Source: a virus
Taxonomy: Duplodnaviria > Heunggongvirae > Uroviricota > Caudoviricetes
DNA: 42,309 bases
Direction: 5' to 3' (one strand)
Virus record (IMG/VR): IMGVR_UViG_638341085_000012
Under the pieces are notes generated by a model. It saw only the letters and a program-made list of their open reading frames with translations. It made no database searches and was not told the DNA's origin. The position numbers and the translations under genes are program-made. Of the stretch, positions 5,659 to 9,602 are shown one piece after another (position 1 is the stretch's first letter; every line of letters begins with the position of its first letter).

Positions 5659-6627
5659 TTAGTAGGTTATTTTTGTTGCGAATACTTCGCCTTTTACGAT
5701 GGCTGTTATGATATTTTTAGCAACATCTTCTGATGCGCCAACCTTGATAAGGTCAGCAAGTATTTTGTTATTTACTTCTTTCCGGTGAGCTTTATCCTTT
5801 GCTCTACGCTCTTCTTCGTCCTTGATTCTTTTTTCTTCTGCTATTCTGGCTTGCTCTTTTGCTTCAGCCTCGCGCCGGATTCGTTCAGCCTCCTCCTGTG
5901 CTTTTCGGCGTTCTGCTTCAATTGCCGCCTGCTTTTCTCTTTCAGCTCGTTCTGCTGCCTCTTTTGCTTCGCGCTGTGCTCGTTGCTCGGCTTCAATGCG
6001 TTCACGCTCTGCACGTTCCGCTGCGGCCTTAGCTTCTGCTTCTCGCCTTGCTGCTGCTTCAATTTCGGCTTTTGCCTTTGCTTCGGCTTCAGATCTGGCT
6101 TTCTCTTCAGCTTCTCTTTTTAAGCGTTCTTCATGCTCTCGCTTTTCCTGCTCCGCTTTGAGTCTTGCCTCTTCTCTTTGGCGGTCAAATTCGCGATCCA
6201 TCAAAATCGCTATTTCATGGTCAGACTCAATTTGCTTTGCGAGAGCTTCAGCTGCTGCCTTAGCTTCTTCTTCGGCTTTAATCCGCGCCTGCTCCTCCTC
6301 ATAATCAGTAAGAGGCTGGCGCGCCTTGGCTTTCAGTTCATCAAGGCGATCACGCACTGTCTTGCGGTTGGCATCAATTAGCTTTGGAATTTCCTTAAGT
6401 TCAGCAACAAGGTCTTTGCCAAGACCATCGAGATATGTTTTCGTCTGCGCAACTTTATACGCCAGAGAAGCGATCTCCTTTCTGCCCTTTGCCGTTGTGA
6501 TATCAGGCACAAAGGACATAACTTCACGTTCAACCTTTTGAAGGATTTCTTCAATCTGGTCGGCAGACTGAAATACAGTCATTGCATTTGCTTTTTCAAT
6601 AACAACTAAATCTGTTACTTCACTCAT
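5659..6627 (-). CDS. Hypothetical early protein with a long E/R/K/A-rich predicted single alpha-helix or coiled-coil region, 322 aa
   Basis: Globular N- and C-termini flanking ~180 residues of EAKR-type low complexity; ATG verified at 6627. Confidence 0.55.
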   Translation of the reverse strand: MSEVTDLVVIEKANAMTVFQSADQIEEILQKVEREVMSFVPDITTAKGRKEIASLAYKVAQTKTYLDGLGKDLVAELKEIPKLIDANRKTVRDRLDELKAKARQPLTDYEEEQARIKAEEEAKAAAEALAKQIESDHEIAILMDREFDRQREEARLKAEQEKREHEERLKREAEEKARSEAEAKAKAEIEAAARREAEAKAAAERAERERIEAEQRAQREAKEAAERAEREKQAAIEAERRKAQEEAERIRREAEAKEQARIAEEKRIKDEEERRAKDKAHRKEVNNKILADLIKVGASEDVAKNIITAIVKGEVFATKITY

Positions 6628-6639
6628 ATATCCTCCATC

Positions 6640-6666
6640 AAAAAAATTGCCCTCACATTAGAGGGC
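6640..6666 (-). terminator. Rho-independent terminator within the early-left operon
   Basis: Minus-strand GCCCTC-TAATGT-GAGGGC followed by AATTTTTTT. Confidence 0.55.
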
Positions 6667-6759
6667 AAAGAAGATTTCCAATAATCAGAACAAGTCGGCT
6701 CCTGTTTAGTTACGAGCGACATTGCTCACATAGCAGACTCGTAAATCTGCTATAGGCGC

Positions 6760-6921
6760 TTATTCGCATCGCATGACAACATCAAATTTTTCGAGATTAC
6801 TTTGTCGCAACAATCCTTCTTCTACGCGGTCAGCTTTTCTATAATTATCAAATTCGAAATGTTTAATTACTTCTTTTGTTTCTCGCTCTATAACTTCAAC
6901 AATGTATTTCTTATTCATCAT
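6760..6921 (-). CDS. Hypothetical protein, 53 aa
   Basis: ATGATGA overlap with the stop of the upstream 98-aa gene; MMNKKYIVEVIERE... Confidence 0.3.
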   Translation of the reverse strand: MMNKKYIVEVIERETKEVIKHFEFDNYRKADRVEEGLLRQSNLEKFDVVMRCE

Positions 6922-7214
6922 TCTTCCCCAAGAGCTTTTCTGATTGCTGCAAGACCTTTATTAACAGTTCCATACCATTCTGGATATGTTGTCGTTGTTC
7001 TATTTTTGGTTTGCTTAAGTAATAACTGAAGTGCTTCGAGAAGGTCAGGTGCTGCCGCTATTAGATTGGCATCTTCAATGCATTGAACTTCCTCACAGAT
7101 TGCAATATACGAACGCCAGCCTGCGCCATTTTCAAGTGAGTCTGCCTGGATGATTTTAATCTCATCGCCATCCATCATTATTTCCCACTTACCTTCAGTA
7201 CCTTTAAATTCCAT
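6918..7214 (-). CDS. Hypothetical Ea22-related protein, 98 aa
   Basis: LIAAAPDLLEAL motif shared with the Ea22-like protein at 2385..2936; first gene after the tL1-like terminator. Confidence 0.5.
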   Translation of the reverse strand: MEFKGTEGKWEIMMDGDEIKIIQADSLENGAGWRSYIAICEEVQCIEDANLIAAAPDLLEALQLLLKQTKNRTTTTYPEWYGTVNKGLAAIRKALGEE

Positions 7215-7262: not shown

Positions 7263-7462
7263 TCACTTAAATTTCCTTTCATCCCCAATCAAGCGTTTCA
7301 AATGCTACATCACGCATGTTTTCGTCTTTTTCGTCCCGATCCATTTCATCCCACTCATTCTCGGATAAGCCAAGATCACCGAGTGTTACAACTGTCTTTT
7401 TGCAAGAATGAAGTTTGCGCCGGAATCCAACCAAATTTCAAATTTACGTTCCATATATCACC

Positions 7463-7789
7463 TCAAATAAGTGGTTTGCTGCCTAATTTTATTTTCTGGC
7501 GACCAACACAAGTCACACCCATTTCACTGCGTGGCTTGCTGTACCATGTGCGCTGATTCTTGCGCTCAATACGTTGCAGGTTGCTTTCAATCTGTTCGTG
7601 GTATTCAGCCAGCACCGTAAGGTCTATCGGATTCAGTGCGCTTTCTACTCGTGATTTCGGTTTGCGATTCAGCGAGAGAATAGGGCGGTTAACTGGTTTT
7701 GCGCTTACCCCAACTAACAGGGGATTTGCTGCTTTCCATTGAGCCTGTTTCTCTGCGCGACGTTCGCGGCGGCGTGTTTGTGCATCCAT
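7463..7789 (-). CDS. N: Antitermination protein N, 108 aa
   Basis: MDAQTRRRERRAEKQAQWKAANPLLVGV... matches recalled lambda N including the arginine-rich motif. Confidence 0.9.
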   Translation of the reverse strand: MDAQTRRRERRAEKQAQWKAANPLLVGVSAKPVNRPILSLNRKPKSRVESALNPIDLTVLAEYHEQIESNLQRIERKNQRTWYSKPRSEMGVTCVGRQKIKLGSKPLI

Positions 7790-8057
7790 CTGGATTCTCC
7801 TGTCAGTTAGCTTTGGTGGTGTGGTGGCTGGTAGTCTAGCTCCAGCTTGTTGAGTCTCATTCGGAGGGGTATAACCGGCACCCCAGCGATTTTTCCATGC
7901 GACAACGTGCGCGTTATGGCGGCCTTATCGCCCGCGGCTCCCCATCTCGTCCACGCTATTGCTAGCGTTGGGAGCGCTTCACCGCTCAACAGTAGGTAAG
8001 CACTTGCCAGTGACTAGCTGGCTTCACCACACCCCAAAGCCTTCTGCTTTGAATGCT

Positions 8058-8089
8058 GCCCTTCTTCAGGGCTTAATTTTTAAGAGCCT
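8058..8089 (-). promoter_or_regulatory. nutL: nutL (boxB GCCCTGAAGAAGGGC with adjacent boxA-like GCTCTTAA)
   Basis: Reverse complement of 8058..8072 is the lambda nutL boxB; boxA-like sequence 8081..8089. Confidence 0.7.
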
Positions 8090-8132
8090 CACCTTCATGG
8101 TGGTCAGTGCGTCCTGCTGATGGCTTAAAATT

Positions 8133-8200
8133 ACAAGAAAGATTGTATGTTGTAAACAAGGAATATTGTAAAAAGGGGCGTGAAAAACAAACTCCATTGT
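8133..8200. promoter_or_regulatory. 434-type left operators OL1-3 (three ACAA-N6-TTGT 14-mers) spanning pL
   Basis: ACAAGAAAGATTGT 8133..8146, ACAAGGAATATTGT 8156..8169, ACAAACTCCATTGT 8187..8200. Confidence 0.6.
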
Positions 8201-8249
8201 TTTTAAATGAAAAATAGTTTGTTTTTGGTTATCGAGATTGAGGTGGGGA

Positions 8250-9602
<1,353 letters not shown>

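Follow-up and report, generated by a model that had tools for sequence, protein, structure and literature searches.

Organization of the N leader

The window, that is the whole stretch of viral DNA that was analysed (42,309 nt), contains a gene for an N antiterminator preceded by a long leader, all features of which lie on the minus strand and are transcribed leftward, with the N start codon at 7789..7787. In the direction of transcription, the following features were delineated.

8121..8121, minus strand: presumed pL transcription start, the A of ATCAGCAGGACGCAC, by match to the lambda pL +1
8081..8088, minus strand: boxA-like element of nutL, GGCTCTTA, at the position equivalent to the annotated boxA of HK544
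8058..8072, minus strand: nutL boxB hairpin GCCCTGAAGAAGGGC, the same as the lambda nutL boxB in lambda-derived loci
between boxB and the 5' arm, minus strand: spacer GCAGCATTCAAAGCAGAAG
8025..8040, minus strand: 5' arm of the base helix, GCTTTGGGGTGTGGTG, GU-rich and boxC-like, pairing with 7826..7810 with a probability of at least 0.995
7827..8024, minus strand: GC-rich apical cassette of 198 nt ('type 286'), enclosed by the arms
7807..7989, minus strand: 60-aa ORF with a TTG start inside the hairpin, taken from the ORF list and judged not to be a gene
7810..7826, minus strand: 3' arm of the base helix, CACCACACCACCAAAGC, with A7817 bulged, assigned by pairing and covariation
7797..7801, minus strand: Shine-Dalgarno (SD) sequence of N, AGGAG, in the context TAACTGACAGGAGAATCCAGATG, which is the same in lambda
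7463..7789, minus strand: N antiterminator gene, 108 aa, MDAQTRRRERRAEKQ..., taken from the ORF list, the homologue of which is annotated as N in HK544, Sf6 and Bas106

The start of the pL transcript was placed at 8121 by identity to the corresponding region of lambda, where we take +1 to be the A of ATCAGCAGGACGCAC. In the HK544 record (EF120455) the 5' nucleotide of the pL transcript is annotated at the equivalent relative position, and a boxB is annotated there as well. The boxA of lambda itself reads CGCUCUUA (PMC2724277). In the ensemble of the full leader the boxB hairpin is retained, its stem pairs having probabilities of 0.99-1.00. The 3' arm ends 8 nt 5' of the SD sequence, likewise in lambda, with TAACTGAC lying between the two, and the N protein shares 92% identity with the N of lambda-derived contigs.

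A preliminary description, made from the sequence alone, had located the element correctly as to its coordinates and the strings quoted, the transcript being the minus strand, and its estimate of ~270 nt from the nutL boxB to the N start is in agreement with the measured gap of 268 nt, as compared with about 158 nt in lambda. Expressed as the boxB-to-ATG leader length, the values are 286 nt here and 176 nt in lambda.

Comparison with lambda and other known phages

A blastn search with the 281-nt boxB-to-ATG query revealed that the leader is 100% identical over its full length in 19 phage records, including those of Sf6, HK544, HK633, HK446, mEp213, mEp043, Sf101, Bas106 and vB_EcoP-720R6. The preliminary description had named as an argument against its own reading that the sequence might be the standard leader of known lambdoid phages with no extra structure, and the first seven phages listed above show this to be the case in part. 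In the case of lambda, 434 and others, the flanks alone align (32% of the 281-nt query for lambda), with an identity of 94.6-98.7% to lambda and 434, and an all-vs-all blastn-short comparison produced no match of the interior to the interior of lambda. Hence, the earlier impression that the ~200 nt between the arms are unlike the lambda leader was correct, and the suggested comparison with the leaders of lambda and 434 gave aligned flanks around an unaligned interior. The interior also occurs in 59 of the 5426 complete E. coli genomes, at up to three places per genome and with an identity of 97.9-100%, unannotated. The segment is unannotated in the records of HK544, Sf6 and Bas106 too, except that in the last of these the 60-aa ORF is called a hypothetical protein.

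The N leader of lambda occupies the same position in the pL transcript and has the same boxB, while the arms, nutL, the spacer, the SD sequence and the N start are nearly identical. Each arm departs from its lambda counterpart by one inserted base, the present pair being GGGGTGTGGTG/CACCACACCACC and that of lambda GGGGTGTGTG/CACACACCACC. What they enclose, however, amounts to 198 nt here and to 86 nt in lambda, without detectable similarity between the two. The rod of lambda continues into another stem (ACGAAAC/GUUUUCGU); the base helix of the present leader, by contrast, leads directly to a multiloop that bears several short hairpins. Since the 86-nt interior of lambda is absent, the difference is to be read as a substitution within a homologous hairpin with a net gain of 110 nt. 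The segment of ~200 bp described earlier is thus real (8024..7827), but it replaces the 86 nt of lambda and was not inserted into the leader.

The base helix

The arms 8040..8025 and 7826..7810 form 7 bp and, beyond the bulged A7817, a further 9 bp, and when the full pL leader of 362 nt is folded as an ensemble, the probability of each of these 16 pairs is 0.995-1.000. The near-perfect complementarity of the two segments and the long terminal stem expected from it were therefore upheld by the folding that the preliminary description had proposed, the helix appearing at a probability of at least 0.995. The fold of the whole leader is better than that of dinucleotide shuffles (z = -3.97, 0 of 200), whereas the fold of the interior alone is not (z = -0.63 and -0.48), so that the statistical signal resides in the base helix.

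Among 12 distinct arm pairs, 7 of the 16 base pairs have changed on both sides, while 97.9% of the cells of the arm alignment remain paired; the observed values were reached in 0 of 500 shuffles, and in a sliding partner control the pairing of the arms fell to 36-55%. The 128-nt leader class, with its interior of 40 nt, was excluded from this alignment because it has no bulge; it possesses a wholly different, perfectly complementary stem of 15 bp (GAGTAGCGCG / CGCGTTACTC). In the 933W-type context described below, the outermost pair of the helix has turned from G-C to A-T. Changes on both sides of the arms that preserve pairing constitute strong evidence of selection on the helix. Together with the homology of the leaders, this covariation supports the earlier suggestion that the stem is the counterpart of the RNase III-processed hairpin in the lambda N leader.

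The 198-nt interior

With 58% GC, as opposed to 35-47% in its surroundings, the interior is indeed GC-rich, as had been noted previously. The imperfect terminal inverted repeats reported for it (GCCAGCTAGTC / GACTACCAGCC) are present in so far as 8 of 11 positions match, yet each of them is predicted to fold into a local hairpin of its own. Eight other cassette types, folded alone, were likewise no better than shuffles.

The Rfam scan called for at the outset was run on 7300..8700, both strands, at E <= 10, and gave no relevant family, the two miRNA/sRNA matches being chance ones outside the element; ten further cassette-bearing loci were equally free of relevant Rfam matches. ARAGORN detected no tRNA or tmRNA in locus L001, which is identical to this one, or in the 8 further leader variants examined, nor did the T-arm-like GCTGGTTCGACTCCAGCCACCA of one cassette (L166) lead to a match. 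Scanning for promoters and terminators revealed no internal promoter on either strand, and the sole terminator-like match was boxB read on the plus strand. Within the window, no further copies of the interior and no complementary targets were found above chance. A blastn-short comparison of all cassettes with an E. coli rrn operon gave no match for the 198-nt cassette; that of locus L191 (see below) alone matched 16S, and two weak cassette matches of 12-13 nt antisense to tRNA-Ile (E about 0.01-0.04) were judged unreliable.

The few variants of the interior contain no compensatory substitutions, and several of them break predicted pairs. Nucleotide diversity (pi) is 0.001-0.004 in the hairpin as compared with 0.008-0.029 in N next to it; roughly half of the copies analysed had been fetched by an exact 26-mer, which biases diversity downward. 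The 133-nt hairpin type, with an interior of 102 nt, shows a diversity equal to that of its N flank; since this sister type has no deficit, a young and recently spread allele is the simpler reading of the low diversity observed here. In summary, the view that the element is a regulatory RNA controlling the translation of N probably holds for the base helix, on the grounds of homology and covariation, but for the interior in its own right no evidence was found among the analyses above, and its interpretation as a separately regulatory RNA is unsupported.

Polymorphism and exchange of cassettes

N loci were surveyed in GTDB representatives and in IMG/VR, together with loci containing either a 26-mer of the interior or the left arm. 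What the scan of GTDB species representatives for N brought up was largely contamination by lambda in genomes unrelated to it, and the 198-nt cassette was not among its results. Lambda-type N loci fall into 9 leader length classes (128, 175-177, 181, 190, 201, 204, 216 and 286 nt), the interiors of which cannot be aligned with one another. Behind the left arm CTTTGGGGTGTGGTGA, 18 k-mer clusters were distinguished, two of them being 99% identical, which leaves about 17 distinct interiors in hairpins of 71-229 nt. The antiterminators encoded downstream of such leaders are diverse and arginine-rich (MDAQ..., MTRRTQFKG..., MTKPRKKRR..., MNAKQRCKLRR..., MNSRQRRIARY... and others). Several of the cassettes share nested outer elements, namely a 5' hairpin ATGCGCAGGCTGATGCGC and a 3' hairpin GCCGGAGATCAGCGCCGGCC, and differ in their centres. 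Altogether, the slot between these arms is taken, in other lambdoid phages, by about twenty cassettes that bear no relation to one another and have interiors of 40-198 nt.

The 198-nt cassette itself is flanked by both arms in 50 of its 52 IMG/VR copies, the remaining two being cut by contig ends. It was found 3' of three unrelated boxB types: that of lambda (in one contig the variant GCGCTGAAAAAGCGC), followed by a lambda-type N; the P22-like GCGCTGACAAAGCGC, followed by an N resembling those of 933W and H-19B; and a third boxB type, which precedes a small membrane ORF. Between the lambda and the 933W contexts, the copies differ at 1 of 229 positions, and apart from the shared cassette the homology of the two contexts is confined to the arms of 17-18 nt. 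The 133-nt cassette likewise occurs in multiple N/nutL contexts, and in one contig (L060) a duplicated fragment of the N start separates two tandem cassettes.

All cassettes except one 40-nt interior have 51-61% GC and 10-25% U. Interiors of 40 nt are viable and common, yet long cassettes persist, and this persistence, along with the shared unusual composition, hints at some selection on the interior. In the 133-nt hairpin type, one internal helix contains two compensatory changes. In addition, a 47-nt portion (7369-7415) of the cassette of locus L191 mimics helix 11 of 16S rRNA (Rfam SSU, E = 3.4e-6), with 34 of 37 positions identical to rrsH 246-282 and a closing stem kept by different bases; as the ten other cassette-bearing loci lack Rfam matches, this has to be considered a single case.

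Full-text searches of the accessible literature brought up no paper in which N-leader variants, the polymorphism of the cassettes or their exchange are described.

Proposed function

In our opinion, the element is probably a natural allele of the hairpin that precedes N in lambda-type pL operons, composed of a lambda-like helix and an interchangeable cassette. The lambda leader, according to Wilson and colleagues, is said to be arranged in the order NUTL, RNase III-sensitive hairpin and N ribosome-binding site, and RNase III cleavage reportedly prevents N-mediated repression. In lambda, NUTL is located about 200 nt upstream of N, translation is repressed by N and the Nus factors, and the intervening RNA is highly structured (PMC5725501). 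Since every element outside the interior is conserved, the same mechanism may well operate here. The helix would then represent the RNase III-sensitive hairpin that brings the NUTL-bound N/Nus complex next to the N start, and N would repress its own translation through the complex apposed in this way. Cleavage of the helix by RNase III would separate NUTL from the ribosome-binding site, and repression would be relieved. The looped-out 198 nt form an interchangeable apical cassette, which is most likely a tolerated, moderately GC-rich and U-poor stuffer or tuning domain without an independent job.

Several observations were counted against this interpretation. The 16-bp helix that precedes the multiloop is shorter than the classic two-turn substrate of RNase III, whereas lambda stacks a second stem on it. 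As far as the stuffer reading is concerned, the shared composition of the cassettes, the persistence of long ones, the compensatory helix of the 133-nt type and the existence of the P22B RNA (see below) were listed. The lower diversity of the hairpin than of the N gene was listed as well, a deficit that the 133-nt type does not show.

Alternative explanations

A functional RNA may instead be what the hairpin carries. According to this explanation, RNase III would excise the looped-out domain by means of a boxC-type helix, and a stable RNA of ~200 nt would act in trans as a decoy, sponge or regulator, in which case the many cassette types would imply diversifying selection. The explanation seems unlikely, although it draws on several lines of evidence. 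P22B, a discrete 96-nt RNA of P22, originates from the homologous gene-24 leader hairpin; its ends, however, do not fit a clean double cut by RNase III. The mimic of helix 11 speaks for a cargo but stands alone among the loci that were searched against Rfam, the 198-nt cassette having no match on either strand. The compensatory changes in the helix of the 133-nt type would be expected of a functional RNA, whereas the variants of the 198-nt cassette are not compensatory and in several instances disrupt the predicted pairs. Likewise, the GC-rich and U-poor composition common to the cassettes and the transfer of this one as a unit between unrelated N/nutL backgrounds, nearly unchanged, have to be set against the lack of both excess folding stability and significant complementarity elsewhere in the window. 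The architecture, finally, recalls the boxC of the rrn leader-trailer helix (PMC10250234).

In its broader form, the same idea would turn the N-leader helix into a 'cargo holder' of general use, built after the rrn boxC helix, with swappable cassettes excised by RNase III as trans-acting, host-directed RNAs. Such RNAs might serve, for instance, as decoys of ribosomal proteins or RNA-binding proteins, a role suggested by the helix-11 mimic, and the 198-nt cassette would be one such phage small RNA. This generalization likewise appears unlikely.

It may also be asked whether the arms act mainly at the level of DNA, as recombination linkers marking the boundaries of modules, the interiors being arbitrary trapped DNA and the RNA helix incidental. 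The confinement of homology between the lambda-type and 933W-type contexts to the 17-18 nt of the arms would agree with this, and so would the tandem cassettes of L060, which are to be expected from unequal recombination at the arms. Moreover, the sequence of the arms is more conserved than pairing alone demands. Nevertheless, the two-sided changes that keep the arms paired, including the separate stem of the 128-nt class, indicate selection on the structure of the RNA or hairpin rather than on sequence identity, which renders this reading improbable. Both explanations, recombination linker and RNA helix, could apply together.

A small mobile element (MITE or IS remnant) inserted in a lambda-type N leader, as had been considered in the preliminary description, might be suspected from the presence of a GC-rich segment between inverted repeats and from the weak inverted repeat (8/11) inside it, at either end. 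This can hardly be maintained: what looks like inverted repeats are the arms of the ancestral helix, present in lambda without this interior; the interior of lambda is missing, as in a substitution; there is no target-site duplication; and the search for other copies that had been advised found the interior to be single-copy in the window, while every retrievable copy is enclosed by these arms and belongs to the leader of an antiterminator, apart from the two IMG/VR copies truncated by contig ends.

Equally remote is the notion that the 60-aa ORF (7989..7807, minus strand) encodes a real leader peptide or small protein. It is a 60-codon open frame on the transcribed strand, and one GenBank record (Bas106), like a few further database entries, lists it as a gene. 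On the other hand, it begins with TTG, lacks an SD sequence and lies inside a structured region closed by the helix. None of the three ORFs of the region has a match in Pfam or PHROGs. Among 5.8 billion proteins, just 4 clusters correspond to the 60-aa ORF, two of them full-length at 98-100% identity and two covering 35-37% of it at 100%, and no diverged homologue is found there. The frame is disrupted by two independent frameshifts, a 1-nt deletion in one IMG/VR contig and a 1-nt insertion in E. coli GDSC2239PM; its commonest SNP is non-synonymous; and in the 933W-type context the stop codon is lost, the ORF becoming 81 aa long and entering N out of frame. The possibility that a conserved protein is encoded here, which had been named as an argument against an RNA element, is thereby rejected.

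Significance

As far as the annotation of the window is concerned, the matter is settled: the segment belongs to the apical part of the N-leader regulatory hairpin and is neither a gene nor a mobile element. As a sequence it was known already, although unannotated, from Sf6, HK544 and several mEp and HK phages, and the feature represents a variant, not annotated before, of a regulatory hairpin that is known. Of greater note are the polymorphism of the cassettes and their passage between antiterminator modules that are unrelated. One of the best-studied regulatory RNAs turns out to consist of a strongly covarying base helix and a hypervariable, cassette-like top, which is exchanged even where the antiterminators of the phages are unrelated. 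With interiors that naturally range from 40 to 198 nt behind an identical nutL, helix and ribosome-binding site, the effects of loop size and content on RNase III processing and on the autoregulation of N become testable, as do possible functions of the excised RNAs (cf. P22B).

Comparison with related systems

In phage HK022, structured put RNAs in the pL and pR leaders act in cis as antiterminators, putL being located upstream of the gene at the position of N. HK022 has no N, and the likeness of the present leader to a put RNA is one of functional analogy only: in a blastn-short comparison with the HK022 pL leader the best match was 7 nt long (E = 5), and the arm motifs GTGTGGTG and CCACACCAC are absent from the HK022 pL-nun region.

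The leader of P22 gene 24 follows the same plan, with pL, boxA, boxB, a helix (UUUGG-A-CUGGCG / CGCCAG-UA-CCAAA) enclosing ~85 nt and an end just before the SD sequence of the N homologue. It differs in the sequence of the arms, in the interior and in the antiterminator, and the motif GUGUGGUG lies inside the P22 helix. P22B, a 96-nt small RNA of P22, was detected at 642 RPM in infected cells, with its 3' end 16 nt before gene 24 (PMC13397905), and was located by BLAST to the interior and the 3' arm of this hairpin. The accumulation of P22B shows that an RNA from a homologous hairpin can accumulate.

The leader-trailer helix of the rrn operons, itself a substrate of RNase III, has in common with the phage leader a boxA/boxB site followed by a GU-rich boxC strand (UCUGUGUGGG in rrn, GGGGUGUGGUG here), a distant complement and a looped-out RNA. 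The rrn helix encloses the 1.5 kb of 16S rRNA, whereas the phage helix encloses 40-200 nt of non-rRNA sequence, and the spacing between boxA and boxC differs as well. An involvement of SuhB or S4 is not known for the phage helix. In rrn, the boxC downstream of boxA provides the 5' strand of the leader-trailer helix around 16S, and its structure outweighs its sequence (PMC10250234). This precedence of structure over sequence fits the covariation of the phage base helix, and the latter may be regarded, by way of analogy and not as an established homology, as the rrn design in miniature.

Polymorphism of the N leader helix

The arms of the N-leader helix (CTTTGGGGTGTGGTG / CCACACCACCAAAG) are near-invariant among the N leaders retrieved from IMG/VR and GTDB (loci L004-L273), and the interiors between them, 40-198 nt long, are of about 20 kinds that bear no relation to one another. 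One and the same interior was found with unrelated boxB and antiterminator types, and the hairpin of the window (8040..7810, minus strand) is one instance among these helices with swapped interiors. Such a cassette-like polymorphism of the N-leader helix appears to be undescribed so far.

Two of the loci contain rearranged leaders:
L060 (IMGVR_UViG_3300045988_069239), about 6560-7150: tandem leader hairpins, the 229-nt type followed by the 133-nt type
L034, 3001-3088: cassette remnant in a degraded P22-like prophage of the E. coli P276M chromosome

A duplicated fragment, consisting of the start of a 933W-type N and a boxB tail, lies between the two hairpins of L060, as if unequal recombination at the arms had given rise to the tandem. 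In the L034 prophage, the deletion endpoint is located within the 198-nt cassette, of which all that remains is the 3' 88 nt, abutting a truncated packaged-DNA stabilisation gene.

Cassettes resembling ribosomal and transfer RNA

The interior of one leader harbours a segment resembling ribosomal RNA:
L191 (IMGVR_UViG_3300013953_000018), 7369-7415: mimic of 16S rRNA helix 11, enclosed by the leader helix of a lambda-type N gene

The L191 cassette matches positions 237-283 of the Rfam SSU_rRNA_bacteria model (E = 3.4e-6), and the mimic is identical to E. coli rrsH 246-282 at 34 of 37 positions, with the closing stem of helix 11 preserved by means of other bases (CCG/CGG versus GGG/CCC). It could be a mimic of a ribosomal-protein binding site adjoining a nut site.

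The cassette of L166 (about 1029-1175, 201-nt leader type) has at its end GCTGGTTCGACTCCAGCCACCA, which resembles the T-arm and acceptor 3' end of a tRNA stacked on the base helix; no tRNA was detected in this cassette by ARAGORN or Rfam. The cassette clusters c13/216-type and c14 contain stretches of 12-13 nt that match tRNA-Ile in antisense orientation (E 0.01-0.04), and these matches are probably due to chance.

ORFs flanking the leader

In some phages (L004, 1331-1459; L055; L062/L130; L039), an extra small ORF is present between the SD of the hairpin and the N gene, examples being MKHNEHFMAWLKSMRDEAKRPETTMTRIVEIFSCISKYATCQ, MNNEALKEMIAKLLEDARRIQEVEPNAGTQSRIDEAMKLLKGE and the membrane-like MLDIMTNPILGGLVTTFAICFGFTIWSEVDDWMWERKNK. 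The window itself carries an ORF on the other side of the hairpin:
8250..8726, minus strand: 158-aa ORF between pL and the 434-type cI (8651..9283)

This ORF, which overlaps the 3' end of cI and encodes a hydrophobic signal-like segment, occupies the same position as gene 38 of Sf6, and probably represents a "moron" for lysogenic conversion or exclusion.

Comparison with the P22B small RNA

The paper describing the P22 small RNA P22B (PMC13397905) does not relate this RNA to lambda's N-leader hairpin, the RNase III substrate. The P22B sequence recurs at one locus:
L276 (Salmonella phage As3), 401-496: matches P22B as published with 100% identity

P22B comprises the interior and the 3' arm of the leader hairpin of P22 gene 24, the N homologue.
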